The notes beneath the pieces are model-generated. The model was not told where the DNA came from, made no database searches, and was given only the letters and a program-made list of their open reading frames with translations. Made by a program: the position numbers and the translations under genes. This document shows positions 897 through 19,681 of a DNA stretch of 64,000 bases, in pieces; within the stretch, counting starts at the first letter, position 1, and each line of letters starts with the position of its first letter. Where the stretch lies: positions 242,763-306,762 of the forward strand of contig JAEPMI010000011.1 in assembly GCA_017644045.1 (NCBI GenBank). The letters are read 5' to 3'. The DNA comes from Deltaproteobacteria bacterium. GTDB taxonomy: Bacteria; Myxococcota_A; Polyangia; Polyangiales; Houyiibacteriaceae.

Positions 897-2152
897 CGGT
901 CGTCCTCCTCGTCTTCGTCGTCATCCGACTCCGACTCCGACTCCGACTCCGACTCCGACTCCGACTCCGACTCCGAGTCTGACTTCGACTCCGACTCCGA
1001 CTCCGACTTCAGGCTTTCGAGCCCGTCCATTGGCGGATGCCGGTCGTCGCCCTGGATCACCGGGTTGTACGGGCCCTGTCGGGCGGCCTTGGCGGCTGCG
1101 AGGTCCTCGTCCTCGGCCGTGCCGTAGGAGCCGCCCATCCAGGTGCTGATCGCCGCGGCGACGAATCGGATGACCGTGAGACCGAAGGCGAGGGGGATGG
1201 CGATGGTCGAGAACCAGTCGGGCACGCCCGTCTGCTCGTACACGCCGCCGTACTCCATCGTGGTCTTGGAGTACTCGTAGCCGAGCCAGGCCATGATCCC
1301 GCAGAAGAACGCCGCCAACAGGAACCCGAGGGCGCTGATGTGCTTCTCGATCTTCTCGGGGACGACCTTGCTCGCGGCCTCCATCCGGATGTGCTTGCCC
1401 TCGTGGGCGCAGATCGAGGCGCCGAGGAAGCCGACCCAGAGGAGCATGATCAGCGAGAGCTCCTTGGACCAGGAGTACTCGTCCGGGAAATAGCTGAGCG
1501 CGAAGGCCGCCAAGAGCCCGCCGGCGACCACCAGCCCGACGATGCGCGTGACCCAGCCGTCTTCCTTCTTGCGGAAGAGCTGCACGCTCCAGGGCACGGC
1601 GACCAGGCCGTAGAGGAGCAGGTAGAAGTACTTGCTCGGGAAGACCCGCATCCGGCGCTCGAAGCCGAACTCGTCGAGGCCCGGCGCCTTCCACTTCATC
1701 AGGAAGCCGAGCCCGGTGATGAGCCCCGCGACCCCCAGGGTGATGAGCACGCTCTTCCCGTCGATCTTCGACTTCTCGCCGCGCGGGCTTCGCGTGGCGG
1801 CGACCCCGAAGAAGAGGACCACCAGCCCCACCACCGAGCTCAGGATCGGTGCGACCGTGTGCTCGAGCATGTGGACGGTGCCCTCGTCGGTGACGCCGAA
1901 GAGGCGCGCGAGGAGCAGGCCCACCCGGCTGTCGGGGGCGGTCAGCCGCCGGTCGACGAAGTCGAGGAAGACCATGACCGTGATCGCCGAAAGGAAGGTC
2001 GCGACGATGGTCTGTTCGACGGCGAAGATCGCGTCGTCGATCTTCCGCAGAAGCCCGAACGGTCCCTCCTTGGGGTCCCCCGAATCGGTCTTCGCCGAAG
2101 CTTCTTCCGACCCGTCCCCGTTCGCGGACTCGGCAGTGGCGGCGGTAGCCAT
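893..2152 (-). CDS. TRAP small-permease-like (DctQ-type) membrane protein, oversized (419 aa), with an acidic Ser/Glu/Asp repeat tail
   Basis: ORF 893..2152. Multiple hydrophobic spans and translational coupling to the DctM gene. The C-terminus SESESESKSDSESESESESESESESESDDDEDEEDDR is encoded by CCGACT repeats. Confidence 0.7.
   Translation of the reverse strand: MATAATAESANGDGSEEASAKTDSGDPKEGPFGLLRKIDDAIFAVEQTIVATFLSAITVMVFLDFVDRRLTAPDSRVGLLLARLFGVTDEGTVHMLEHTVAPILSSVVGLVVLFFGVAATRSPRGEKSKIDGKSVLITLGVAGLITGLGFLMKWKAPGLDEFGFERRMRVFPSKYFYLLLYGLVAVPWSVQLFRKKEDGWVTRIVGLVVAGGLLAAFALSYFPDEYSWSKELSLIMLLWVGFLGASICAHEGKHIRMEAASKVVPEKIEKHISALGFLLAAFFCGIMAWLGYEYSKTTMEYGGVYEQTGVPDWFSTIAIPLAFGLTVIRFVAAAISTWMGGSYGTAEDEDLAAAKAARQGPYNPVIQGDDRHPPMDGLESLKSESESESKSDSESESESESESESESESDDDEDEEDDR
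925..1008. repeat. CCGACT hexamer array (about 12 units, slightly degenerate) inside the 3' end of the DctQ-like CDS
   Basis: The + strand reads ccgactccgactccgactcc... Same core as the four intergenic arrays. Confidence 0.9.
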
Positions 2153-2253
2153 GGTCGGCTCACCCTACGCAACTCGCGACGCTCGCATCAAGCGCAAAGG
2201 GCGGGCCTTTCCTTCCATCCCCCGCGCGGAGAGCGCGGTACCATCCCGCCGCC

Positions 2254-3321
2254 ATGGTGGTGAAGGACGGAAGCCGGGTTCTGGTGACGCTCGGCGGAGC
2301 CGTGCTCGTCGCGGCCGGTCTGTACTTCGCTCGGCCGGTGGTCGGCCCCGTGCTCCTCGCCAGCCTCGTCGCGGCCATCACTGCCCCGCTGGTACGATGG
2401 CTGACCGAGCACCGCATCCCGAGCTTCGTGGCGGTCCTGACCGGGCTCTTCGTCGACGGTCTGGTCCTCGCGGCCATCGGAGCCGTCATCGCCAGCGCCG
2501 TGGCGGACATCAGCGCCTCCCAGGAGCGCTACACGATGCACCTCGCCGACGCCTTCGAGGCCGTCGAGCAGTGGACGGTCGCGCTCGGGCTCGACCTCGA
2601 GGCGGAGGTGATCGAGAGCGCGCTCCAGCCCGACGCTCTCATCGACACCTTCGGGGCCATCCTCCAGCGGCTGCTGGGGGTGTTCTCGCAGCTGGTGCTC
2701 CTGCTCCTCCTGGTGGGCTTCATGCTCTCGGAGCTCTCGGAGTGGTCGCGGAAGGTGCGAAGCCTGCTCCACGACCGCGGTGACCTCGAGGCCCTCCGCG
2801 AGGCCGGCGCGGAGGTGCGCGGGTTCCTCCGAGTGAAGTTCGCCACGAGCGCGATCACCGGCTTGTTCGCCACCGGCATCTGCTTCGGCTTCGGGATCGA
2901 TCTCCCGATCCTCTGGGGGCTGACGGCGTTCCTGCTGAACTTCATCCCCAACATCGGCAGCATCATCGCGGCGATCCCTCCCATCGCCATGGCGCTCCTC
3001 CTCCACGGGCCGGGCACCGCGGCCCTCGTGGGCGGCTCCTACCTGGTCGTGAACACGGTCATCGGCTCCATCATCGAGCCGAAGATCATGGGCGAGACGC
3101 TGGGCCTCTCCGCGCTCGTGGTCTTCGTCGGCCTGCTCTTCTGGGGCTGGCTGCTGGGACCGATCGGCGCGCTGCTCTCGCCGCCACTGATGCTCCTGCT
3201 CAAGACCTGGCTCGAGCACACCCAGGACCTGCATTGGGTGGCCGTGTTGCTCGGCTCCGACGTCGACGAGCCGGGTCAGCTACCGCCGGCCCCGGAGCCG
3301 GACTCGGCCGCTCCTCAGTAG
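2254..3321 (+). CDS. AI-2E family transporter (PerM/YhhT-like permease)
   Basis: 355-aa polytopic membrane protein. Its layout and the C-terminal ...GETLGLSALVVFVGLLFWGWLLGPIGALLSPPL... are typical of the family. Confidence 0.8.
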   Translation: MVVKDGSRVLVTLGGAVLVAAGLYFARPVVGPVLLASLVAAITAPLVRWLTEHRIPSFVAVLTGLFVDGLVLAAIGAVIASAVADISASQERYTMHLADAFEAVEQWTVALGLDLEAEVIESALQPDALIDTFGAILQRLLGVFSQLVLLLLLVGFMLSELSEWSRKVRSLLHDRGDLEALREAGAEVRGFLRVKFATSAITGLFATGICFGFGIDLPILWGLTAFLLNFIPNIGSIIAAIPPIAMALLLHGPGTAALVGGSYLVVNTVIGSIIEPKIMGETLGLSALVVFVGLLFWGWLLGPIGALLSPPLMLLLKTWLEHTQDLHWVAVLLGSDVDEPGQLPPAPEPDSAAPQ

Positions 3322-4235
3322 TGCCAGGGGAACTTGCGGAACTCGAACTCCCGCTTCTCCAGGAACGCATCGCGCCCCTCGACGGCCTCGTCGGTGCCGT
3401 AAGCCAGCCGCGTGGCTTCGCCGGCGAAGAGCTGCTGCCCGACCATGCCGTCGTCGACCATGTTGAAGGCCAGCTTGAGCATGCGGATCGCGGTGGGGCT
3501 CTTCGCGGTGATCCGCTTCGCCCAGTCGAGGGCGACCTCTTCGAGCCGCTCGTGCTCGACCACCCCGTTGACCATTCCCATCATCGCCGCCTCTTCGGCG
3601 GAGTAGTCCCGGCCGAGGAAGAAGATCTCGCGGGCGCGCTTCTGACCGACCATTCGGGCGAGGTAGGCGCTGCCGTAGCCACCGTCGAAGCTGGCGACGT
3701 CCGCGTCGGTCTGCTTGAAGACCCCGTGCTCGCGGCTGGCCAGCGTCAGGTCGCACACGACGTGGAGGCTGTGGCCTCCGCCGACGGCCCAACCGGGCAC
3801 CACGGCGATCACCACTTTGGGCATGAAGCGGATGAGCCGCTGGACCTCGAGGATGTGCAGGCGCCCCAGCTTGGCCGGGTCGACGCTCTCTTTCGTCTCG
3901 CCTTCCGCGTACTGATAGCCGTCCCGGCCCCGGATCCGCTGGTCGCCGCCGGCGCAGAACGCCCATCCCCCATCTTTGGGAGACGGGCCGTTTCCGGTCA
4001 GCAACACGCAGCCGACGTCGCTCGTCGTTCGCGCGTGCTCGAGCGTCCGGAAGAGCTCGTCCACCGTGTTCGGGCGGAACGCGTTGCGCACCTCCGGCCG
4101 GTCGAACGCGATCCGTACCGTTCCCTGGTTCTTGGCCCGGTGGTAGGTGATGTCCTGGAGGTCGTCGAAGCCCGGGACGACGTCCCAACGGCTCGGGTCG
4201 AAGATGGTGGAGACCATGACGGCGGAGCTTGGCAC
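3315..4235 (-). CDS. menB: 1,4-dihydroxy-2-naphthoyl-CoA synthase
   Basis: The 306-aa ORF aligns by eye along its full length to MenB: DITYHR...VRIAFDRPEVRNAFRP...FCAGGDQ...GGGHSLHVVCDLT...FKQTDADVASFDGGYGSAYLAR...FPWHY. The start is GTG 4235 or ATG 4217. Confidence 0.9.
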   Translation of the reverse strand: MPSSAVMVSTIFDPSRWDVVPGFDDLQDITYHRAKNQGTVRIAFDRPEVRNAFRPNTVDELFRTLEHARTTSDVGCVLLTGNGPSPKDGGWAFCAGGDQRIRGRDGYQYAEGETKESVDPAKLGRLHILEVQRLIRFMPKVVIAVVPGWAVGGGHSLHVVCDLTLASREHGVFKQTDADVASFDGGYGSAYLARMVGQKRAREIFFLGRDYSAEEAAMMGMVNGVVEHERLEEVALDWAKRITAKSPTAIRMLKLAFNMVDDGMVGQQLFAGEATRLAYGTDEAVEGRDAFLEKREFEFRKFPWHY

Positions 4236-4284
4236 TCTGAGAGCCGTCCGCCAGTGGCCGGTCTGCTATCGTTCCTGCAACCCC

Positions 4285-5523
4285 GTGTCGGAAGTGTCAG
4301 ACAGTCAGGAGTTTCCCCGAGAGGAGTTGCTCTCCCATTTCGGTGGATACGTCGCGCCGGGGCTCCGCATCGTCCGTTCGCTCGGTGCCGGTGGGCAGGG
4401 CCGGGTCGTGCTGGCGGAGGACGAGCGGCTGGCGCGCTCGGTCGCGGTGAAGTTCCTGGGCGACGAGGAGACGGTGAGCGATCCAGACATCGCCGCCCGG
4501 GTTCGAGTCGAGGCCCGCACGATGGCCAAGGTGCGTCATCCGGCCGTGGTCCAGGTCTTCGACGTCGGGGACGCCGACGGCCGGCCCTACCTCGTCATGG
4601 AGTACATCGAGGGCGAGACCATCGAGGCTCGGCTTCGCGCGCGTGGTCGGCCCTTCGATCTCGCGGAGGCACTCTCGCTGCTCGAGCAGATCGCGCTCGG
4701 CCTCCAGGCCGTGCACGAGGCCGGGCTCGCGCACGGCGACCTCCAGCCGGCCAACGTCCTGATCAGCGCCGACCATCGCGCGCGGGTCGTGGACTTCGGC
4801 CTCGCCTTCCTCTCCGGGGGCACCGCGCATTACATGGCGCCGGAGCTGCACAGCCCGACCATGCCCTCGCGCGACGTGCGTTCCCGGCAGCGGGCCGACC
4901 TCTACGCGCTCGGGGTGGTCGCCTACGAGCTCTTGGTCGGGGAGCGACCCTTCGACGCGCCCGACCGGGCTCGCGTCCTCGCGCAGCACCAGCACAAGGC
5001 GCCGCCCGCCCTGCTCGCGCGGCGCCCGGATCTGCCGGCATCGCTCGGGGCGATCGTCGCTTCCTGCCTCGCCAAGGAGCCGGCCGACCGACCGGCGAAC
5101 GCGGCGGCGGTCGCACAGGAGCTCGGGGACGCCTCCCGTCGTCAGAGCCGTCCGTCGTTCCGGCGGGTGTTGCTGGTCGATGACGACCCTGCCTTCCGGG
5201 CTCTGGTTCGAGCGCACGTCGAGAGTGCGTTCGAAGGCGTGCACGTGTCCGAGGCCGCCGGCGGCGCCGACGCCATCGCGGAGTGTGAGCGGGTGCGCTA
5301 CGACGTGGTGCTCCTCGACCTCCACATGCCCGACGTGAACGGCGTCGAGCTCGCGGGCGCGCTCTGCGCCGAGCCTCACGCGCCGCGGCTCCTGGTCCTC
5401 ACCGGTCAGGGCTCCGCCCGCGACTGGGCACTGCTACATGGGCTCGGCGTCTCCGCGTTCCTCGCCAAGCCGCTCGAGCCCGATGTGCTCCGAGCCGAGC
5501 TCCAGCGCGCGCTCTACGACTAG
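4285..5523 (+). CDS. Ser/Thr protein kinase fused to a C-terminal response-regulator receiver domain
   Basis: Kinase motifs LGAGGQGRV, AVK, HGDLQPANVL, DFGLA and APE. These are followed by a canonical receiver (VLLVDDDP...VVLLDLHMPDVNG...LTGQG...FLAKP). The ORF-track start 4147 overlaps divergent menB, so I chose in-frame GTG 4285. The start is uncertain. Confidence 0.75.
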   Translation: MSEVSDSQEFPREELLSHFGGYVAPGLRIVRSLGAGGQGRVVLAEDERLARSVAVKFLGDEETVSDPDIAARVRVEARTMAKVRHPAVVQVFDVGDADGRPYLVMEYIEGETIEARLRARGRPFDLAEALSLLEQIALGLQAVHEAGLAHGDLQPANVLISADHRARVVDFGLAFLSGGTAHYMAPELHSPTMPSRDVRSRQRADLYALGVVAYELLVGERPFDAPDRARVLAQHQHKAPPALLARRPDLPASLGAIVASCLAKEPADRPANAAAVAQELGDASRRQSRPSFRRVLLVDDDPAFRALVRAHVESAFEGVHVSEAAGGADAIAECERVRYDVVLLDLHMPDVNGVELAGALCAEPHAPRLLVLTGQGSARDWALLHGLGVSAFLAKPLEPDVLRAELQRALYD

Positions 5524-8435: not shown

Positions 8436-10511
8436 CTACGGCCGGTCGGACTCGTCGTCCGAGGGCAAGAGCTGCTGCAGGAGCCAGCGCTGTCGGTAGA
8501 GATCCTCGTCCGCCTTGGTGAGGCGGTCGTGGATGCCGCCGACCATTCGGACGCTGATGAGCGCGGCCAGAACGCAGCTCACCATCATGAACACGCGCAG
8601 CGAGACCTCGTCGAAGGAGAAGACCGGCGAGCTGACCTGGATCGCGTCACCCACCACCGAGTAGCTGGCGGGGAAGAGGCCCATCCACTCGAGGATCCCG
8701 GGGATGACGATGGCGAAGACCGACGCGGCCAGGACGAATCGTCGCCCGATCCCGTCGAGGTTGAGCACGACCGCGGGCGCGGAGGCGACGACGATGACGG
8801 GCAGCAGGAAGTAGGGGCCGAGCACCAGGCCCACGGGGATGATGCTGAGGATCTGGACGACCGCCGCGAAGCGGAGGACCGACATGGGTACGGGGCGCTG
8901 GAGGGAGGCCCAGCTCTGGACGGCGCCGGCGATCATCGCGACGGCGGTGATCAGGATGCCGAGCTTGATGTTGTCGAAGCCGACCCACACCCAGAGCGGC
9001 GCGTTGAGCAGCCAGGCGTAGCGACCGAGCGCCAGGAAGCGCATGCCGGCCCGGCGCACGCCGTCCCGCCGATGCTCGAGCGCGCGGCGGGCTTCGGGCG
9101 GGAGCTTCGCCGGCGGTTTCGCGATCAGCTCGACCAGAGTGCGGCGAGCGACCTCCGAGTCGGGGTCGAGCGCGACGGCCATGCCGGCGCGCCGCATCGC
9201 TTCGCTGTGCGCCTTCGAGGCGTCTGCCTGACCTTCGTAGGCTCGCTGCGCGGCCCGCTCGGCGGCGGCGGCGTGGCGCATCGCGGCGGTCTTGCGACCC
9301 TGGTCCCACTGATCGCCGTCGAGGAAGCTCTGGACCGCGGCGTGGAGCTCGCGGGCGGTGCCGAAGCGCTCCTCGCGGTTGGGGGCCGTGGCCAGCCCGC
9401 AGATCTCGAGCATGAAGTGGCTGACCGGGTTCGGCTCCTCGAGGGTCTTGTAGCGGCCGTGCACGTCCAGGTCGTGGAGCGTGTCCGTGAGCATCACGTG
9501 CGCCTCGGCCTCCGGGATCAGCGCGTGGCCGCTGAGGACCTCGAAGAGGATCGCTCCGAGCGCGAAGACGTCGGCGCGACCGTCGAGGTCGTCGCCCCGG
9601 ATCTGCTCCGGCGCGAGATAGCCTGGTGTGCCGAGGAGCGACCCGGACATCGTCTGCAGATCCATGATCTCGCGGGTGTCGAGGTGGCCGCCGTCGGCGG
9701 CGCCGAGGACACGGGCGATGCCCCAGTCGAGCACGTACACCTCGCCGAAGTCGCCGACCATGATGTTCGAGGGCTTGAGGTCGCGATGGATCACACCGCG
9801 CGAGTGGGCGTAGTCCACCGCGAGACAGACCTGCGCGAACGCGTGCAGCAGCCGCTTGACCGGGAACTCCTCCATGGTTCGCAGGTGTCCGCGGCGACGG
9901 CGGTAGAGGATGCTCGAGAGGGTGTGGCCGCGGACCCGCTTCATCGTGAAGTAGGGGATGCCGCCCCGGGTCTCGCCGATGTCGTGGACGGGAACGACGC
10001 ACGGGTGGTCGAGCTGACCTTGGATGCGCGCTTCGCGGAGGAAGCGCATGCGCTTGGTCTCGTTGTCGGCGAACTCCGGCAGGAGGACCTTCATCGCGAC
10101 TTCGCGACCGACGTGGACGTCGCGGTAGAGCCGAACCTCGCCCATGCCTCCTTCGCCGAGCACCCCGCGACCGCGGTAGCGCTCCGACGCGTCCATCTCG
10201 CTGCTCGAGGTGGCGCCGCCGGAGCCGACGATCGTCTCGTCGGAGTCCTGGGTGACCATGGGCGGCGGCGGCATGGTCGAGACCCGGCCGGCGCCGAGGG
10301 GGAAGCCGCCCTCGAGCTCCTCCTCGACGTCGGAATGGCTCATGACCTCGGTCTGGTCGCCGGTCTGCGGCACGTGGCGTGGGCGCGGAGTGGTCATCGA
10401 GATCCGACCGCTGCGTTCGTCTCTCGGGAGCGGTTCCTGCGAAGCGTCGAGCTCGTCTTCGACCTTCTGGTCATCGGTGCTCAACGTCTTCGCGCCGCTA
10501 GTTGGACTCAC
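8436..10511 (-). CDS. Ser/Thr protein kinase with a C-terminal multi-pass membrane domain
   Basis: Motifs GEGGMGEV, AMK, HRDLKPSNIMV, DWGIA and GTPGYLAPE. The C-terminal ~200 aa contain several hydrophobic helices. Confidence 0.85.
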   Translation of the reverse strand: MSPTSGAKTLSTDDQKVEDELDASQEPLPRDERSGRISMTTPRPRHVPQTGDQTEVMSHSDVEEELEGGFPLGAGRVSTMPPPPMVTQDSDETIVGSGGATSSSEMDASERYRGRGVLGEGGMGEVRLYRDVHVGREVAMKVLLPEFADNETKRMRFLREARIQGQLDHPCVVPVHDIGETRGGIPYFTMKRVRGHTLSSILYRRRRGHLRTMEEFPVKRLLHAFAQVCLAVDYAHSRGVIHRDLKPSNIMVGDFGEVYVLDWGIARVLGAADGGHLDTREIMDLQTMSGSLLGTPGYLAPEQIRGDDLDGRADVFALGAILFEVLSGHALIPEAEAHVMLTDTLHDLDVHGRYKTLEEPNPVSHFMLEICGLATAPNREERFGTARELHAAVQSFLDGDQWDQGRKTAAMRHAAAAERAAQRAYEGQADASKAHSEAMRRAGMAVALDPDSEVARRTLVELIAKPPAKLPPEARRALEHRRDGVRRAGMRFLALGRYAWLLNAPLWVWVGFDNIKLGILITAVAMIAGAVQSWASLQRPVPMSVLRFAAVVQILSIIPVGLVLGPYFLLPVIVVASAPAVVLNLDGIGRRFVLAASVFAIVIPGILEWMGLFPASYSVVGDAIQVSSPVFSFDEVSLRVFMMVSCVLAALISVRMVGGIHDRLTKADEDLYRQRWLLQQLLPSDDESDRP

Positions 10512-10571: not shown

Positions 10572-12353
10572 ATGAACGTAGGACAAACGCCTACCTTTGG
10601 CGCCCTTTCACGAGCGATCGTGCTATCTGGCGGGACCATGCGGCGCCACGTCCATCGGCACTTTCTCGCCATCGTCGCGATCGCGGTGCTCGTCCTGCCC
10701 GCGGTCGCTCACGCGCAGGGAGTGGAAGCGGCCGCCGAGCCGGACTTCGGGTGGCTGAGTCTGCTGCCTCCGCTGCTCGCCATCGCGCTCGCGTTGGTGT
10801 TGCGGCAGGTGCTGCTCGCGCTCGCCGCGGGTGTCTGGCTCGGGGCGCTCTTCGTCGAAGGCTTCGACCCGCTCGCGGCCACGTTGCGCGCCGTCGATCG
10901 CTACGCGGTCGAAGCGGCGGCGGACGCGGACCACGCGTCGATCCTGATCTTCAGCCTGGCGCTCGGCGGGATGATCGGCGTCATCACCCGGAGCGGCGGC
11001 GCGAGTGGCATCGCGGGCTTGGTCACCAAGCGCGCGAAGACGGCGCCGCGCGGACAGCTCGCGACCTGGTTCCTCGGTCTGCTGGTCTTCTTCGACGACT
11101 ACGCGAACTCGCTCCTCGTCGGTTCGTCCATGCGACCGATCACCGACCGGCTCCGCATCAGCCGCGAGAAGCTCGCGTTCCTCGTCGACGCCACGGCCGC
11201 GCCGGTCTCGTCGATCGCGCTCGTCTCCTCCTGGATCGGCGTCGAGGTCGGCTACATCGGTGAGCAGCTCGCGGCGCGCGACATCGACCTCGATCCCTAC
11301 CTCGCGTTCCTGCAGACGCTGCCCTACCGATTCTACCCGTGGCTGATGCTCTTCTTCGGGCTCCTGCTCGTGCTCAGCCGCCGTGACTTCGGCGCGATGC
11401 GCAAGGCCGAGGAGCGCGCCCGCAAGACCGGTCAGGTGAGCCGCCCCGGCGCGCGCCCCGCGTCCGACTTCGACTCGAGCGCGCTCGAGGAGGCGAGCAA
11501 GCCCCGCGCGCTCCTCGCGATCGGTCCCGTCATCACGGTCGTCGCCGTGGCGCTCTTCGGGATGTACTTCGACGGGCGCGCCACCGTGCTCGAGAACGAC
11601 GGTGTGCTGACGCTCCGCAACATCTTCGGCAGCGCGAGCTCGCTCAAGGGCCTGCTCTGGGCCGCGGTCGCCGGCGGAGCCGTCGCCATCGTGCTCTCGC
11701 TCGTCACCCGAGCGCTCACGCTCACCGACGCCATGGACGCATGGGTCGACGGGATGAAGTCGATGCTCCTCGCGTGCATCATCCTCGTGCTCGCCTGGTC
11801 GCTCGGACGGATCTGCAAGGAGATCGGTACGGCTCAGTACGTCATCCAGCTGATCGGGGACGGCCTCGCGCCCGGGCTGCTCCCGGCGGTGGTCTTCGTG
11901 ATCGCTGCGGCGGTCAGCTTCGCGACCGGGACCTCGTGGGGGACGATGGCGATCCTCTTCCCGCTCGTCGTCCCGCTCGCGGATCACCTGGCGCCCGGCG
12001 AGATGCACATCCTGCTCGGGGCGATCTCGTCGATCCTCGCGGGCAGCGTCTGGGGTGACCACTGCTCGCCCATCTCGGACACGACCATCATGAGCTCGAT
12101 GGCCTCGAGCTGCGATCACGTGGACCACGTACGAACACAGCTGCCCTATGCGCTCTCGGTGGGCTTCGCCGCGCTGATCTTCGGTGAGCTCGGAACGGGT
12201 CTCGGCCTCTACCCGGCGTGGGTCGGCCTGCTGCTCGGCGCCGGCGCGCTCACGGCGCTGGTCTACGTCCTCGGTCGCCGCGTCGACGGCCCCGACGACC
12301 CGCCGCCCGCGGAAGCCGCACCGGAAGCGGAACCCGACGCCGACCCGGCGTAG
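10572..12353 (+). CDS. Na+/H+ antiporter NhaC-family membrane transporter
   Basis: Polytopic ORF with ...FFDDYANSLLVGSSMRPITD... and ...GDHCSPISDTTIMSS..., motifs typical of the family. The true start may be ATG 10638 (MRRHVHRHF..., signal-like). Confidence 0.7.
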   Translation: MNVGQTPTFGALSRAIVLSGGTMRRHVHRHFLAIVAIAVLVLPAVAHAQGVEAAAEPDFGWLSLLPPLLAIALALVLRQVLLALAAGVWLGALFVEGFDPLAATLRAVDRYAVEAAADADHASILIFSLALGGMIGVITRSGGASGIAGLVTKRAKTAPRGQLATWFLGLLVFFDDYANSLLVGSSMRPITDRLRISREKLAFLVDATAAPVSSIALVSSWIGVEVGYIGEQLAARDIDLDPYLAFLQTLPYRFYPWLMLFFGLLLVLSRRDFGAMRKAEERARKTGQVSRPGARPASDFDSSALEEASKPRALLAIGPVITVVAVALFGMYFDGRATVLENDGVLTLRNIFGSASSLKGLLWAAVAGGAVAIVLSLVTRALTLTDAMDAWVDGMKSMLLACIILVLAWSLGRICKEIGTAQYVIQLIGDGLAPGLLPAVVFVIAAAVSFATGTSWGTMAILFPLVVPLADHLAPGEMHILLGAISSILAGSVWGDHCSPISDTTIMSSMASSCDHVDHVRTQLPYALSVGFAALIFGELGTGLGLYPAWVGLLLGAGALTALVYVLGRRVDGPDDPPPAEAAPEAEPDADPA

Positions 12354-12372: not shown

Positions 12373-13860
12373 GTGCGCGCCGTCCTGCTCATCGCCGTCG
12401 CTTCTGCCCTCGGGCTGAGCTGCACGGATCCGGACGACCCCGCGCGCGACAGCCGCGCGCAGTGGGAGCGCGCGCAGAAGGCGTGGGAGCGGGGAGAGGC
12501 GGGCGCCTACGGTCTCTGGAAGGACATGGACACGGACACGTCCATCGGCCGCGAGGCACACCGCCGCCTCGCGCAGGCCGACCCGTTCTATCGAGAGGGC
12601 GTCGAGCTCCTCCGCGAAGGGGATCCGGACGCGCGCCTGGCCCTCGCCCGAGGGGTCGAGCTGGCGCCGATGGACCCCTCGCTCTACCTGCCGCTCGCCC
12701 GCGCGTGCCGCGACCAGGGCCTCTCGCTGCGAGCGGCCGAGTACTACACGAAGTTCCTGACGGCCTTCCCCGAAGGTCGGCGCGCCGACGAGGCCCGCGT
12801 CGAGCTCCGGCGGCTCGACCCGCAGCTCGCGGGCGTCTTCGAGAGCCGGACGGTGCTGCCCCGCGCACCTGCCGCGCCGGGTCGCAGCCCATGGCTCCTG
12901 GTCCTCGTGGGGGTGTTGCTCGGTGGGGTGCTGACGCTGACCGGCCAGACCGTCGCGCGATTCTTCCGGACCCGGGGAGTCTCGCTCGAGAAGCTCGTCG
13001 AGGGCAGCCCCGAGTTCCACCCGGCGATCGCCTACCTGGTCGGGTCACTCCGCCACGAGCTGCTCAAGCACCGCATCGGGGCGGCGGCCGACGCGATCCG
13101 CAACACCGCGGACGAAGAGCGCCTCGCCTTCCTCCGCAAGCGCCTCTACGGCGGCCAGCCCCTGGTCGAAGCGTGGGAAGCGCACCTGCTCGCCTTCGAG
13201 CGCGCGCTCGGTCACCGCGTCGACCTCCATCGCGACCGTTCGTTTCGCCGCGCCGGCCGGGCCATCCGGCGCATCGCGCGCCTCGAGGAAGGCATCGCCG
13301 GTGGCTCGCCCCGGGCGTTGCGCGAGCTGGCGCGCTCTCACACGACCTTGATGGAGCTCGACCGCCAGCTCGCCGATCTGATCGGTGCGCTGATCCGGAC
13401 GCTGGTGGACGCGACGTTGCTCGAAGAGGTCGCCCACGAGGTGCGGTCCGAGCACAGCGCGGGCGCCGTGGAGCTCGAGACGCTCGCGATCGAGGCGCCC
13501 GACGAGCGCGTGGTGCTCGACGTCTTCCGGGTCGACCTGGTGCTCATCCTCAAGAACATCCTCCGGAACGCGATCCTCGCCGTCGGCGAGGACCCGGCGC
13601 CCAGGCACGTGCGCCTCGACGCGGTGCTGGAGCTCGAGCCGACGGGTGAAGAGACGGTCCGCATCCGGGTGCACGACTCGAGCAGCAAGGAGCTCGACCC
13701 GGAGATCCTCTTCGATCGGCGGGTCGACCGGGGCCTCGGCCTGGTCGCGGCCGCCGTGCATCGTTACGGCGGCACGATCGACGTCGAGCCGGCGGAGGCG
13801 CCCTTCGAGAAGCGCGTGGTGATCGCGTTCTTCCGAACCTTCGACGGCGACGACGTTTGA
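12373..13860 (+). CDS. Lipoprotein-anchored TPR sensor with a TM helix and a cytoplasmic histidine-kinase-like ATPase domain
   Basis: Lipobox LGLSC. TPR-like periplasmic region. TM helix PWLLVLVGVLLGGVLTLTG. Possible H-box SLRHELLKH. N-box-like LKNILRNAILAV and G-box-like DRGLGLVAAAVHRYGGTIDVE. Confidence 0.6.
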   Translation: MRAVLLIAVASALGLSCTDPDDPARDSRAQWERAQKAWERGEAGAYGLWKDMDTDTSIGREAHRRLAQADPFYREGVELLREGDPDARLALARGVELAPMDPSLYLPLARACRDQGLSLRAAEYYTKFLTAFPEGRRADEARVELRRLDPQLAGVFESRTVLPRAPAAPGRSPWLLVLVGVLLGGVLTLTGQTVARFFRTRGVSLEKLVEGSPEFHPAIAYLVGSLRHELLKHRIGAAADAIRNTADEERLAFLRKRLYGGQPLVEAWEAHLLAFERALGHRVDLHRDRSFRRAGRAIRRIARLEEGIAGGSPRALRELARSHTTLMELDRQLADLIGALIRTLVDATLLEEVAHEVRSEHSAGAVELETLAIEAPDERVVLDVFRVDLVLILKNILRNAILAVGEDPAPRHVRLDAVLELEPTGEETVRIRVHDSSSKELDPEILFDRRVDRGLGLVAAAVHRYGGTIDVEPAEAPFEKRVVIAFFRTFDGDDV

Positions 13861-14351
13861 GCGCCTCGGCCTGGTCGAGCGAGACGGGTATCATCCCGCT
13901 CGTGTCCCGCCCCGCCCTGCTCGTCATCGAAGACGGCCACGAGTACGAGGAGTTCGCCCAGGCGTTCTTGGGGGAGCGCTACGAGGTGCGCGCCGCTCAC
14001 TCCGCCGAGGAGGCCCTCGCCGCGCTCGAGGTCCAGATGCCGGAGGCGCTGCTGGTGGACCTGCGCTTCGAGCGAGCGGCCGTGAGCGACCTGATCGGTG
14101 ACATCGACGGCACCGCCCGACGCCGCTTCGCCGGCGACACCCACCGCGCCATCCGCCACCTGAAGGAGCAGCAGGGCACGCTGGTCCTCGGGGCGCTCCG
14201 CGACGCCGGCTGCGACGCGCCCGCGGTCTTCGTGCACGACTTCCCGCCGCGCCGGCTCGCCAACCTCCGTCGGCTCTATGGGAAGGTCCGCGCGGTTCCG
14301 GCCTTCGACGCCCGCGCGATCGCGGCGGCCTTCGAGGAGCCGGAGCAATGA
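13857..14351 (+). CDS. Atypical receiver-like (pseudo-receiver) protein
   Basis: TTG start overlaps the upstream TGA. Contains LLVIEDGHEYE and ALLVDLRFE, which parallel [12 protein letters not shown] and AVLLDVRFE in the downstream activator. The conserved Thr/Ser position is not obvious. Confidence 0.5.
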   Translation: MSASAWSSETGIIPLVSRPALLVIEDGHEYEEFAQAFLGERYEVRAAHSAEEALAALEVQMPEALLVDLRFERAAVSDLIGDIDGTARRRFAGDTHRAIRHLKEQQGTLVLGALRDAGCDAPAVFVHDFPPRRLANLRRLYGKVRAVPAFDARAIAAAFEEPEQ

Positions 14352-14683
14352 GCGTCGACAGGGAGCGCGTGCTGCACGACGTGGGCAAGTACGTCGCGCG
14401 CACGGCGATGAATCTGCCGGAGGGCGCGCTGGTCGCGCCCGCGCTGGCCGAGCTCATGCTGCGAGACGTCTACGGCCGCGGCGACGAGCCGCGGATGAGC
14501 GAGACCTTCGACGCGCTGGTCGGCGAGACCGACGATCCGGTCCTCGGCGAGTGTCGCGACTGCCTCCAGGAAATCGATGCCCTCGAGGGTGACGCTCGGG
14601 CCGGAGACGTGGACGCACTCACCCGGATCGCGACGCTCGCTCGCTCGATCAGCGAACGGCTGAAGGCGTGGGCGCGCGCGTGA
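14348..14683 (+). CDS. Small hypothetical protein (111 aa) with an HDVGKY motif
   Basis: ATGA overlap upstream, and overlap with the downstream start. Only LHDVGKY resembles an HD-domain fragment. Confidence 0.45.
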   Translation: MSVDRERVLHDVGKYVARTAMNLPEGALVAPALAELMLRDVYGRGDEPRMSETFDALVGETDDPVLGECRDCLQEIDALEGDARAGDVDALTRIATLARSISERLKAWARA

Positions 14684-16341
14684 CCCACCCCACCAAGGTG
14701 CTCATCGTCGACGACGGCGATCGCTACGTGGAGCTGCTGCACGCGCTCCTGCGCGACCTCCGCTACGCCACCCGCTGCACGCTGCCGGGACCCTGCTGGG
14801 AGTGCCCCCACCGCGTGGGGTGCGAGCTGACCCACGCGCACGACTGGGCCGAAGCGCGCGAGGTCCTCGCGCGCGACTCGAGCGTGGACGCGGTGCTCCT
14901 CGACGTGCGCTTCGAGCTCCCGGAGCAGCGCTTGCTCGGGTCCGCGGACGAACCGCTCGAAGAACGGCAGCGACTGCAGGGGCTCCGCATCCTCGACGCG
15001 ATCCGGCACCTCCGTCCCGACGTCCCGGTGGTCCTGATGACCAGCGAGGAGGCGATCGGGCTCGAACGCGCGGCGCCGCTCGCGGCGGACGAGTACGTCA
15101 CGCTCGCGGGCGATGACGCCTTCGACGCGCAGAGCCTGGCGTCGCTGGTCTCTCGGTTGGTCGCGCGCCGCCGCCGCTACGACGACGACGACAGCTACGT
15201 CTGGGGCCAGAGCAAGGCGATGCGCGCGCTCCGCCACGGCGTGATCACGCGGATCCGAACCGGGTTGCCGCTGCTGGTGCTCGGCGAGACCGGGACCGGC
15301 AAGAGCGCGCTCGCCGAGCGCGTGATCCATGCGCAGTCGTCGCGGCGCGCCGGGCCCTTCGTCGGCGTCGATCTCGCCGCGCTCCCCGACACCCTCGTCG
15401 CCTCCGAGCTCTTCGGCTCCGTGAAGGGCGCGTTCAGTGGGGCGGTCGATCGACCCGGGCGCTTCGAGCAGGCCCACGGCGGGACGCTCTTCCTCGACGA
15501 GATCGGCAACCTCCCGGCGGACGCGCAGCGCATGCTCCTGCTCGCGCTGCAGGACGGGCGGGTGACGCGACTCGGCGACACCCGGCCCCGCGACGTCGAC
15601 GTGCGGCTCGTGGCCGCCACCCACGTGGACCTCGAGCGCCGGGTCCGGGAAGGCTCGTTCCGCGCCGACCTCTACGCGCGCCTCAACCCGGCCATGGCGT
15701 TCGAGCTCCCCGCGCTCCGCGAGCGGCGCGCGGATCTACGGGAGCTCTGCGAGGCGCTGGTGCGACGGCGCTTCGCCGAAGGGACCAACCACGACCGACT
15801 CGCGGCGTATCAGAAGGCGGTGGGCATCGGCGGTCCGGTCCTGGCCACCTTCGCGGTCGGCAAGGAGGACCCGCCGGCCGAGGGGGTGGCCTTCGTCTTC
15901 ACCGAGGAGAGCTGGAAGCGCATGCGGGCTCACCCGTGGCCGGGGAACATGCGCGAGCTCGAGTACTTTCTCGCGTCGGCGAGCTTGATGACGCTCGAGA
16001 CCGACCTCGACGCCGCGGAGCAGGGGAGGGCGTCGCTGCTCGGCGCGCGCCTCCCGGTGTCGGCCAGCCTGGTGAGCCAGCTGCTCGAGCGATCCTGGGT
16101 GGCGCCGGACGCGGAGGGTTCGTCACCGCTCGCGAGCGGGGCCATCGAGCCGAGAGCGCAGCTCAAGGAGGTCGTGCGCGATCTCGAGACGGCGCTCTTC
16201 GAGCGGCTCTTCGAGGAGACCGACGGCGACTTCGAGGCGATGGCCGCGCGTCTGCTCGAAGGCGACCCGGCGGAGAACGCGCGGCGGGTGCGGCTGCGGT
16301 TCAACCAGCTGGGGCTGCGGGTCCGTGAGCTTCGCCGCTGA
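14668..16341 (+). CDS. Sigma-54-dependent AAA+ transcriptional activator with an atypical Cys-containing receiver and no canonical Fis-type HTH
   Basis: Walker [18 protein letters not shown] (a GAFTGA variant), Walker B FLDEIG, and an R-finger region. The start may be GTG 14680, which gives a GTGA overlap with the upstream stop. Confidence 0.8.
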
Positions 16342-16345
16342 GGCG

Positions 16346-16750
16346 GCGACTCCGACTCCGACGCCGACTCCGACTCCGACGCCGACTCCGGCGCCGACGC
16401 CGACTCCGACGCCGACTCCGACTCCGACGCAGACGCCGACTCCGACTCCGACGCCGACTCCGACGCCGACTCCGACGCCGACGCCGACTCCGACGCCGAC
16501 TCCGACGCCGACGCCGACTCCGACGCCGACTCCGACGCCGACGCCGACTCCGACGCCGACTCCGGCGCCGACGCCGACTCCGCCGCCGACGCAGACTCCG
16601 ACAGCGACCACCGACCACCGAGAGCCGACTCCCGAGAGCCGACAGCCGACTCCCGAGAGCCGACTCCCGAGAGCCGACCGCCGACAGCCGAGAGCCGACT
16701 CCCGAGAACCAACCGACGACTCCGACGCCCGAGTGGACGAGAGCCGACTC
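16346..16750. repeat. CCGAC[T/G] hexamer array (about 40 units, with a 30-nt higher-order unit) decaying into ~14-nt units
   Basis: Read directly from the sequence. tccgacgccgacgccgactccgacgccgac occurs three times at 16471-16560. ccgagagccgactc-type units run from 16610 to 16750. Confidence 0.95.
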
Positions 16751-16786: not shown

Positions 16787-18162
<1,376 letters not shown>

Positions 18163-18166
<4 letters not shown>

Positions 18167-19075: not shown

Positions 19076-19681
19076 ATGTGGAATCGAGTTGGACCCGCCT
19101 TGGTGGTCCTCGGTCTGGTCAGTGGGATGGTGTGGGTGTCGGCCGAGACGGGCGAAGCCCAGCGGCGCGGTCGGCGCGCTCGAAACCAGGGGCCGGTGGC
19201 CTTCTTCGCCGGTGCTTCCGAAGAGCAGACCATTCGCGGTGACACCAAGCTCGACTTCCGCGCGGTGTCCGAAGGCTCGACCGGCTGGGACCCGCGCGCG
19301 GGTCACTTCACCGTGCCCGCCGATGGTGCGTACCACTTCGATCTGGGCGCTCGGATCACCCACGCGCCGCCCTCGCTCAGTTGCGCCTACACCTTCACTC
19401 TGGTGAAGAAGCGCGGCGGGAACACGGTGGCCAGCGTCGAGATGCTGGTGCTCGAGCAGAGCACGGTCGACGTCGGGGACACGGGGCGCGGCAACCCGGT
19501 GATGCGACAGACGTCTTGGCGGCTGCGTGACTCTGCGGGCGTGACGCTGCCGCTGAAGGAAGGCGACATTCTCGAGGTGCACGCCGAACCGAGCATTCAG
19601 CTCTGCGGCGGACAGGCGCGGCTGACGCCGCTATCGGGCAGCCAGGTGGTGTCGTTCTTCTCGGGCCACCGGGTGCGCTGA
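19076..19681 (+). CDS. Secreted C1q/TNF-like jelly-roll domain protein
   Basis: Signal peptide, then VAFFAG...FRAV...GWDPRAGHFTVPADGAYHFD...L.EGD...FFSGHRV, which matches the C1q-domain landmark pattern. GGAGAGG Shine-Dalgarno lies before the ATG. Confidence 0.55.
   Translation: MWNRVGPALVVLGLVSGMVWVSAETGEAQRRGRRARNQGPVAFFAGASEEQTIRGDTKLDFRAVSEGSTGWDPRAGHFTVPADGAYHFDLGARITHAPPSLSCAYTFTLVKKRGGNTVASVEMLVLEQSTVDVGDTGRGNPVMRQTSWRLRDSAGVTLPLKEGDILEVHAEPSIQLCGGQARLTPLSGSQVVSFFSGHRVR

Follow-up and report, generated by a model that had tools for sequence, protein, structure and literature searches.

What does a run of four tightly packed genes in a polyangial myxobacterium do, and how might a signal entering at its first gene reach the sigma-54 activator encoded by its last? 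The genes lie on the forward strand of a 64,000-nucleotide stretch (here, the window) of “Deltaproteobacteria bacterium” assembly GCA_017644045.1 (contig JAEPMI010000011.1, positions 242,763 to 306,762), in a region of about 71% G+C. The first open reading frame, P1 (12373 to 13860; 495 amino acids [aa]), encodes a lipoprotein-anchored, TPR-like periplasmic sensor with one transmembrane (TM) segment and a predicted cytoplasmic DHp+CA kinase. P2 encodes a stand-alone pseudo-receiver and ends at 14351, starting either at GTG 13902 (149 aa) or at TTG 13857 (164 aa). P3 (14348 to 14683; 111 aa) is a helical bundle of an undescribed family with an invariant His10-Asp11, and P4 (553 aa from GTG 14680 to 16341, with a longer frame open from 14668) combines a pseudo-receiver, an AAA+ sigma-54 activator, and a conserved C-terminal domain. 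An earlier interpretation made from the DNA letters alone (the sequence-only reading) had proposed that these genes form either a divergent phosphorelay or a partner switch that works without phosphorylation, linked by consecutive start/stop overlaps. The four genes and the overlaps TTGA 13857-13860 (P1/P2), ATGA 14348-14351 (P2/P3), and GTGA 14680-14683 (P3/P4) are all where that reading placed them. Our analysis shows that the four genes are a conserved signaling cassette of polyangial myxobacteria, specific to the class Polyangia. The mechanism that we favor, tentatively and with somewhat less than even confidence, is a divergent His-Asp-His-Asp relay in which a phosphoryl group would pass from P1 His228 through P2 Asp68 and P3 His10 to P4 Asp79 (Asp75 when numbered from GTG 14680).

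Do the four genes belong together at all? A pattern scan of one genome per species yielded 22 loci, all from Polyangia, Sandaracinaceae, Polyangiales, or “Myxococcales” metagenome-assembled genomes (MAGs), and the four window proteins were mapped onto these loci and onto metagenome contigs (related loci are designated here by L numbers). In all recovered loci, about 25 independent ones from Polyangia (the 22 genome loci, metagenome contigs, and Sandaracinus amylolyticus), P2, P3, and P4 adjoin one another, and P1 lies directly upstream of P2 in most of them. A 4-nucleotide stop/start overlap joins P2 to P3 in about 23 of 26 loci and P3 to P4 in 25 of 26, while a P1/P2 overlap occurs in at least seven loci besides the window. 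In the cultured S. amylolyticus (CP070225.1, 1540088 to 1544134), the operon is intact and all three overlaps are present. Adjacency and overlaps of P2-P3-P4 persist at protein identities of 35 to 55% while the flanks change, across Sandaracinaceae, Polyangiaceae, and unclassified Polyangia. Furthermore, a metagenomic protein of 330 aa, P0402, is a head-to-tail P2-P3 fusion in the database and a candidate for a natural fusion.

These observations bear on the simplest alternative, namely, that the genes are neighbors by chance or through local synteny among close relatives and have no joint function. It could appeal to the occasional displacement of P1 and to the variation of flanking genes between clades. 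However, because identities drop to 35 to 55% while the flanks vary, the gene set goes beyond chance or shallow synteny; the retention of gene order and 4-nucleotide overlaps across families effectively refutes this explanation, the P2-P3 fusion also speaks against it, and we regard it as extremely improbable. The check for co-occurrence that the sequence-only reading had called for therefore came out in its favor, with P2-P3-P4 contiguous in all recovered loci and P1 upstream in most. It had also named what would count against it, ordinary HisKA, REC, and HTH_8 domains in a gene set not conserved as a unit; we found profile matches that are below threshold or absent, and a unit that is conserved.

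Three side observations concern the arrangement. The P0402 fusion has Gln at the position of P2 His127. In L027, the closest relative of the window, a gene for a 426-aa secreted-looking protein (4218 to 5498, reverse strand) is inserted on the opposite strand between P1 and P2, and P2-P3-P4 must therefore be transcribable without P1. In L004, a P3 homolog (..AHDVGKYVAMTARN..) is followed, within 1849 to 3497, by a sigma-54-like promoter and a gene for p236 (see below), with no P2 or P4 in the 10.5 kb available; this may be a rearranged or reduced locus.

Are all three overlaps used? P2 homologs fall into 384 clusters and mostly measure 143 to 149 aa, the P2 proteins of close relatives begin M(S/T)RPALL, and in L027 (85% P3 identity, P1 not adjacent) P2 starts at a GTG equivalent to 13902 of the window. 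For these reasons a start at TTG 13857 is doubtful. P2 probably starts at GTG 13902, a downstream start that the sequence-only reading had missed and that would give a protein of about 149 aa and a P1-P2 gap of 41 nucleotides; in this genome, the TTGA overlap is then likely to be a coincidence. Just 5' of the P2 GTG, GGTATCAT(C/T)CCG is conserved in the window and in L027, and the equivalent position in L028 reads TATCATCC. Because the 4-nucleotide P3/P4 overlap is conserved, GTG 14680 is supported over 14668 as the start of P4. The chain of overlaps claimed for all four genes is thus supported as functional coupling for two of its three links, P2/P3 and P3/P4, but probably not for P1/P2, and comparison of the loci suggests that P2, P3, and P4 are translationally coupled almost everywhere.

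Is P1 a kinase? All of its profile matches in Pfam and NCBIfam are below threshold (TPR_16, and HATPase_c with E=2.8e-4 and 21.7 bits against a cut-off of 26.4), and no HisKA-type Pfam model matches it. Its homologs form 259 clusters, nearly all without a Pfam assignment, and a profile of the cytoplasmic family retrieved no PDB kinase by sequence at E<=1. An AlphaFold2 model of residues 198 to 495, built with 62 homologs, has a pLDDT of 92.9 and consists of a helical hairpin followed by an alpha/beta ATP-binding domain, the architecture by which DHp+CA kinases are defined. In a Foldseek search of the PDB, the top 50 matches of this model were without exception DHp+CA sensor histidine kinases (probability 1.00, E from 5e-8 to 2e-6); 134 matches had E<=1e-3, and the top ones include HK853, CpxA, WalK, KinB, and LOV-HK chimeras.

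The residues of such a kinase are largely in place. R227, H228, E229, K232, H233, R234, N395, N399, D435, G454, and L455 are invariant in 62 sequences. The H-box LRHELLKHR (13048 to 13074), in the middle of the first long cytoplasmic helix of the model, holds the candidate phospho-His, H228, together with the likewise invariant H233. The ATP-binding boxes span 13552 to 13743 (N box KNILRNA, 13552 to 13572; G1 box HDSS, 13672 to 13683; G2 box RGLGL, 13729 to 13743). In the G1 box Asp435 is invariant and the glycines are absent, the ATP lid is short, and an extra helical insertion of about 60 aa separates the two long helices of the DHp hairpin. Toward the N terminus, the lipobox region LGLSC (12409 to 12423) ends in Cys17, which is nearly invariant in the 62 homologs, these having L-[AS]-[AG]-C; a hydrophobic TM stretch (aa 173 to 198; 12889 to 12966) keeps its position in the family alignment. 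By the fold of its model, P1 is thus predicted to be a DHp+CA histidine kinase with an invariant H-box, and its N-terminal part is a lipid-anchored, TPR-like periplasmic sensor connected to the kinase by one TM helix. The description of P1 as a lipobox, TPR, and one-TM protein with a kinase-like cytoplasmic part was correct.

A further gene accompanies P1 elsewhere. In eight loci (L003, L010, L013, L014, L016, L018, L021, and L026), a canonical single-domain receiver is encoded divergently upstream of P1; the copy in L026 (7478 to 7888, reverse strand) has 137 aa, a PF00072 match with E=7e-14, and a KP motif. This gene stays beside P1 where P1 has parted from P2-P4, and it is absent from the window. 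P1 may use its product as a second substrate or as a phosphate sink.

Can P2 and the N-terminal part of P4 receive a phosphoryl group? The Pfam Response_reg model matches only the N-terminal half of P2, below threshold (17.6 bits against 30.2), and the Pfam REC match of P4 is also below threshold (22.7 bits against 30.2). In hhalign comparisons with a set of canonical receivers (Escherichia coli CheY, the NtrC-type regulator encoded nearby in the window, and eight receivers from related loci), P2 aligned with Prob 95.8% and E=8e-9 and the P4 N terminus with Prob 97.3% and E=2e-11. Both are accordingly best described, from these alignments, as predicted (beta-alpha)5 receiver folds. P2 E25-D26/D68 and P4 D15-D16/D79 (numbered from 14668) align with CheY D12/D13/D57, and the acidic pair and the acceptor Asp are therefore present in each. 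In P2, E25 and D26 are at least 90% conserved and D68 is invariant in 37 sequences; in P4, DDGD and VLLDV, which contain D15-D16 and D79, are invariant in 19 members.

The remaining active-site residues are another matter. CheY K109 aligns with Pro148/Val147 in P2 and with Asp150 in P4, and no conserved Lys or Arg was found in the beta5-alpha5 loop of either family. The receiver Thr is kept in P4 (LMTS, T125), whereas P2, in the PDB alignment to PhoP, has His127 instead (FVHDF, versus FLT in PhoP and MVT in CheY). The sequence-only reading, which had found neither Lys nor Thr obvious in the two proteins, was right about the Lys of both and the Thr of P2 but missed the Thr of P4. Because at least one of the five active-site residues is missing, both are pseudo-receivers under the definition of Bourret and colleagues, a receiver fold lacking one or more of these residues (PMC12632262). 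According to the same work, many pseudo-receivers are not phosphorylated, substitutions at DD, T, or K need not abolish phosphotransfer, pseudo-receivers that retain the Asp may be less efficient receivers, and how pseudo-receivers are activated is an open question (PMC12632262).

P2 and P4 also share a peculiar structure. In P2, the acceptor strand VDLRFER is followed by a 34-aa beta3-alpha3 insertion, relative to CheY and PhoP, that ends in QQG (14055 to 14177 for strand and insertion); D68, L69, R70, F71, R73, G81, F91, G93, R97, Q105, Q106, and G107 are invariant in the 37 sequences. In P4, the strand LLDVRFE, aligned to CheY D57, is followed by a 22-aa beta3-alpha3 insertion ending in LQG (14896 to 14982). 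Besides the insertion ending in QG and the missing Lys, the two have in common DGxxYxE behind beta1 and FDA where alpha5 begins. That P2 and P4 share one divergent receiver variant is thus borne out; of the “RFE plus a long insertion” by which it had been characterized, the insertion occurs in both, but RFE is invariant in P2 only (DLRF[ED]R), the P4 family having DV-A-F-[DE].

Such receivers invite an explanation without phosphotransfer. P2, a stand-alone paralog of the P4 receiver, might heterodimerize with it through the alpha4-beta5-alpha5 face that both share, and this pairing would relieve or impose a receiver block on the assembly of the AAA+ ring; P3, by binding P2 or P4, would serve as an adaptor or anti-activator, and the kinase, or a metal or redox signal at the Cys4 site of P4 (see below), would shift the equilibrium while no phosphoryl group reaches P2 or P4. 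Both receivers being Lys-less, and P2 Thr-less in addition, agrees with this scheme, and the shared motifs DGxxYxE and FDA occupy the same surfaces in the two proteins. No protein of the set is better conserved than P2 (60 to 70% identity where P3 has 35 to 47%), as would befit a protein with several binding partners, and a stoichiometric complex is suggested by the strictness with which P2-P3-P4 are translationally coupled. In addition, several loci do without P1 in their local gene arrangement, and P3 is not HPt-like by any test run. However, an unused pocket would hardly account for an acidic pair and acceptor Asp that are (nearly) invariant in both receiver families across distant relatives, most loci have a complete kinase next door whose H-box is invariant, and the invariant His10 of P3 would be left with no obvious role. 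We consider such a partner switch somewhat unlikely.

The middle position in the relay that we favor would be taken by P3. In the window, this protein is 100% identical to JJ863_29965, from a “Deltaproteobacteria bacterium” MAG. A word-indexed search found 58 homologs and an exhaustive one found 215 clusters (50% identity), almost exclusively of stand-alone proteins with 100 to 160 aa. The signature HDVGKYVARTAMN (14375 to 14413) includes H10, D11, V12, K14, Y15, A17, R18, A20, and N22, all invariant in the 58 sequences, as are D40, D77, L79, and E80. HDVGKY, the only motif that the sequence-only reading could point to in P3, is therefore invariant, and P3 has neither a Pfam family nor a PDB sequence relative. 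Its AlphaFold2 model is an all-helical bundle (pLDDT 91.8), for which Foldseek found in the PDB only generic four-helix bundles as best matches (TMq 0.5 to 0.6, E>0.2), with no HPt protein among the top 50. P3 represents a new family, predicted to form a four-helix bundle. On a helical wheel, H10, K14, and R18 would lie on the polar face of their helix. A phosphotransferase would be expected to have just these features: a small helical bundle, an invariant His, and a gene placed between those of two receivers.

Two known classes were considered for P3 and rejected. None of the 58 members matches the Pfam Hpt model at E<=10, and their motif is H-D-V-G-K rather than H-x-x-K-G. Only 2 of the 58 touch the HD model, through the HDxGK motif (E about 0.04), and Foldseek indicated no HD fold.

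The nature of P3 also bears on a branched two-component system, in which P1 would phosphorylate the P4 receiver directly and P2 as a competing phosphate sink. P3 would then be a phospho-Asp phosphatase or connector like Spo0E or CheZ, using its conserved His and acidic residues (HD..., EIDALE) in the active site of the receivers. Known auxiliary phosphatases are small helical proteins, as P3 is, and besides His10 P3 has the conserved acidic residues D11, D40, D77, and E80 and lacks an HPt signal. Single-domain receivers are often sinks, a second canonical receiver is often encoded next to P1, and a P2-P3 fusion fits an enzyme-substrate pair as well as a relay pair. On the other hand, the gene order of histidine kinase, receiver, His protein, and receiver-output protein matches a relay exactly, and the invariant His, the residue that defines a phosphotransferase, is present in P3. 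The missing Lys is as much of a problem for direct phosphorylation of P4, and no similarity of P3 to the Spo0E, CheZ, CheX, or Rap families was detected. This arrangement is, in our view, unlikely.

Can P4 carry the signal to a promoter? Its Sigma54_activat match (PF00158) has E=5e-55, as expected from the sequence-only reading, which had recognized an AAA+ sigma-54 activator with GAFSGA. The AAA+ core (15202 to 15963) contains Walker A GETGTGKS (15283 to 15306), GAFSGA (15427 to 15444), and Walker B LFLDEIG (15487 to 15507), and its lid contains an insertion of about 44 aa (15781 to 15912) followed by WPGNMRELE (15937 to 15963). GAFSGA, a loop of the GAFTGA type found in sigma-54 activators, is invariant in 19 sequences of the P4 family. 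Judged by these motifs, the sigma-54 AAA+ engine is complete.

The C terminus of P4 is less conventional. Roughly the last 60 residues belong to the best-conserved part of the protein (19 of 64 columns invariant; GDFxxMAxxLL...), and they form a conserved domain (16162 to 16338), probably a divergent Fis-like helix-turn-helix (HTH) with a lengthened turn. HTH_8 (PF02954) matched none of 16 P4-family C termini at E<=10, nor any of seven variants from which the four residues of the putative turn had been deleted, while the neighboring NtrC-type control scored 1.5e-10; no PDB sequence match was found for the domain. An hhalign comparison with a small Fis/NtrC alignment gave a weak match (P=2.7e-4) over the first 38 columns (LERxLxxRLxxxTxGDFxxMAxRLL), which correspond to the first two helices of a Fis-type domain; unrelated helical profiles gave P>=0.06, and 30 column-shuffled controls gave P>=0.26. 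Altogether, the profile and structure searches recovered a kinase fold for P1 and a helical bundle for P3 but no HPt relative for P3 and no HTH_8 for P4.

Stronger evidence comes from comparing the DNA downstream of P4. In 15 of 24 related loci, against 1.7 expected (P about 6e-10), the P4 strand carries a -24/-12-like element (GG-N10-GC, agreeing with the consensus at 8 or more of 11 positions) 55 to 195 nucleotides past the P4 stop codon. Exact TCTACGA/TCGTAGA half-sites occur 14 times in the 160-nucleotide zone 3' of P4, versus 0.63 expected (P about 1e-14). Six of the 15 loci (L006, L009, L012, L016, L024, and L026) have the near-perfect 15-bp palindrome TCTACGAnTCGTAGA within the first 150 nucleotides past the P4 stop, either 56 or 67 to 68 nucleotides 5' of the -24 element, so that the two spacings are about one turn of the helix apart; L026 has a third half-site, which overlaps the P4 stop codon. 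Downstream come a ribosome-binding site and the p236 gene, which follows the promoter element in the 15 loci. The p236 protein is a membrane-anchored coiled-coil protein that has a conserved N terminus (..NSVMFALxELxxLE..) and belongs to no Pfam family. In two further loci (L001 and L005), where p236 and P4 are convergent, a TGGC-N7-TTGAA element is still found upstream of p236.

Because palindrome and -24/-12 element lie directly 3' of P4 in the relatives, we infer that P4 is probably a DNA-binding protein with p236 as its usual target. The proposal that P4 may lack a DNA-binding domain is accordingly disfavored, given the conserved C terminus, its alignment with Fis-type domains, and the adjacent promoter and palindrome in relatives. 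The search for -24/-12 promoters, which the sequence-only reading had suggested, was successful in the related loci but not in the window, where TGGCAC-N5-TTGC with up to two mismatches gave 28 matches against 43 expected and none near the operon. The palindrome, with up to three mismatches, had three matches in the 64 kb against 1.7 expected, none of them relevant, and neither tblastn nor the N-terminal motif revealed a p236 homolog in the window.

P4 has one more conserved feature, which the sequence-only reading had overlooked. Inside its receiver, an 18-residue insertion relative to CheY carries the motif C-x5-C-x2-C-x5-C-x3-H-x-H (14773 to 14841), of which all four Cys and both His residues are invariant in 19 family members. 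The insertion is a probable metal site. The N-terminal Fe-S motif of E. coli FNR is C20-x2-C23-x5-C29. The P4 insertion similarly holds C-x2-C-x5-C with a fourth Cys nearby, a likeness to be taken as a lead only; unlike in FNR, the motif is located in a receiver domain and not at the N terminus of a CRP-family protein, and a Zn knuckle is equally possible. As for genes farther downstream, a mono-heme cytochrome c (CBB3-type) is encoded 1 to 5 kb 3' of P4 in L003, L011, L014, L015, L020, L021, and L026, an FMO-like flavoprotein gene follows the P4 module in L003, L011, L014, and L026, and L003 also has a gene for a MopE-like copper-binding protein there. Such neighbors could point to a theme of redox or metal chemistry, or they could reflect plain synteny.

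How, then, would the cassette work? The relay is favored because the gene order matches it, each prospective phosphoryl carrier residue is invariant, and both acidic pockets are preserved. An envelope signal would be sensed by P1, whose H228 would donate its phosphoryl group to P2 D68; from there the group would move to P3 H10 and finally to P4 D79. The beta3-alpha3 insertion of the atypical receivers may stand in for the missing Lys, and through the Cys/His insertion of P4 the last step could receive an additional input from metal or redox state. Once activated, P4 would bind the palindrome through its divergent Fis-like C terminus and then open the -24/-12 promoter that, in most genomes, lies directly 3' of P4 and would drive p236; in the window, this target is not adjacent to P4.

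Several points weigh against this relay. (i) P1 lacks the G1 glycines and escapes the HisKA models, and its linkage is looser than that of the other genes: it is located several kilobases away in L003, L005, and L011 and is absent from the available flank in L001 and L023. (ii) In the eight loci with a divergent, Lys-containing receiver next to P1, that receiver could be the true substrate of P1. (iii) Neither P2 nor P4 has the catalytic Lys, and P2 also has no Thr/Ser. (iv) P3 has no detectable relation to HPt proteins, and its His is near the N terminus on a short helix. (v) HTH_8 fails to recognize the putative DNA-binding domain of P4 even with the loop trimmed, and since palindrome, sigma-54 promoter, and p236 were all not found in the window, the output step is deduced from other genomes.

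The surroundings of the cassette differ between relatives. A gene for an NhaC-type Na+/H+ antiporter (10572 to 12353, forward strand) stops 19 nucleotides 5' of the P1 start; because this gap is so small (8 nucleotides in L027), the antiporter gene is probably cotranscribed with P1, in this clade only. Divergently upstream, the window and L027 both have a Ser/Thr protein kinase gene (8436 to 10511 of the window, reverse strand). The spacer between P4 and the next gene contains a tandem array (16347 to 16707) of 12-, 18-, and 30-nucleotide units (CGACGCCGACTC...) in about 21 copies, followed by an array of 14/21-nucleotide units. The array looks like a recent local expansion, since L027 has the same gene arrangement with a spacer of only 98 nucleotides and no array. 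The gene after the repeats (16787 to 18166) encodes, as had been noted from the sequence, a canonical NtrC-type regulator with REC, AAA+, and HTH_8 domains (REC 1e-29; HTH_8 4e-9). Downstream of it lies a gene for a 201-aa secreted protein (19076 to 19681, forward strand) with a weak match to the C1q domain (E=0.002).

Is the cassette a variant of something known? Our literature searches found no description of the four-gene module, which appears to be undescribed so far. The closest parallel is the ShkA-ShpA-TacA relay of Caulobacter crescentus, which runs from a hybrid histidine kinase through an HPt protein to a sigma-54 activator (PMC7010744) and in which REC1 of ShkA is a pseudo-receiver that binds c-di-GMP (PMC7010744, PMC6969517). 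Both systems would be multistep relays ending on an NtrC-family sigma-54 activator, in which a small all-helical His protein stands between one receiver and that of the activator and a pseudo-receiver takes part in control. They differ in that the first receiver here, P2, is a separate protein and not fused to the kinase, that both receivers are Lys-less and have the beta3-alpha3 insertion, that P3 shows no sequence or fold signal of HPt, and that P4 has the Cys4/His2 insertion in its receiver and an HTH not recognizable as HTH_8. The LuxN/LuxQ-LuxU-LuxO pathway of Vibrio follows the same logic as ShkA-ShpA-TacA.

In gene composition, the cassette recalls the KinA-Spo0F-Spo0B-Spo0A relay of Bacillus subtilis, which consists of a kinase, a single-domain receiver, a His phosphotransferase, and a receiver-containing transcription factor, likewise four separate proteins in that order. 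However, Spo0B is dimeric and DHp-like and has a CA-like domain, whereas P3, with its 111 aa, looks like a monomeric bundle. The receivers Spo0F and Spo0A are canonical and have the Lys, the Spo0 output depends on sigma-A/sigma-H rather than sigma-54, and the spo0 genes do not form one operon.

With NtrB-NtrC-type pairs, of which the regulator at 16787 to 18166 of the window is an example, the cassette shares a histidine kinase and a REC-AAA+ activator with Walker A and B motifs, a GAFTGA-type loop, and the lid motif WPGNxRELE. In contrast to such pairs, it contains two additional obligatory genes, P2 and P3; its kinase goes undetected by HisKA and remains below the HATPase_c threshold; and its activator has a Lys-less receiver below the PF00072 threshold, GAFSGA in the loop, the lid insertion of about 44 aa, and no detected HTH_8. 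Finally, P2 and P4 resemble the pseudo-receiver class, including the sigma-54 activator FleQ (PF06490), whose receiver is not phosphorylated, in having a (beta-alpha)5 fold with one or more active-site residues missing. Unlike FleQ-type and most studied pseudo-receivers, they keep the DD and D residues strictly, are encoded together with a kinase and a His protein, and match none of the small pseudo-receiver families of Pfam.

Sigma-54 activators and phosphorelays are well understood, and the module is not a new principle. What it brings together is two conserved pseudo-receiver families with an Asp pocket, a dedicated kinase, a His protein of no known class, and a probable metal site, to which most genomes add a clearly marked target promoter next to the genes. 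A more far-reaching combination, in which P3 is a new class of phosphotransferase unrelated to HPt, Spo0B, and ChpT, the Lys-less receivers carry out phosphotransfer by means of an alternative active site formed by the conserved, Arg-rich beta3-alpha3 insertion, and the Cys4/His2 site of P4 binds Fe-S or Zn, strikes us as doubtful; if it were true, P4 would be an AND gate that combines an envelope signal, relayed from the TPR kinase, with a signal of redox or metal state. The intact copy in cultured S. amylolyticus makes a relay through Lys-less receivers directly testable, and the module, conserved and tractable, lends itself to asking what controls pseudo-receivers that retain the Asp. Three of the four proteins are without family annotation, and defining these families would improve the annotation of several hundred myxobacterial and metagenomic proteins.

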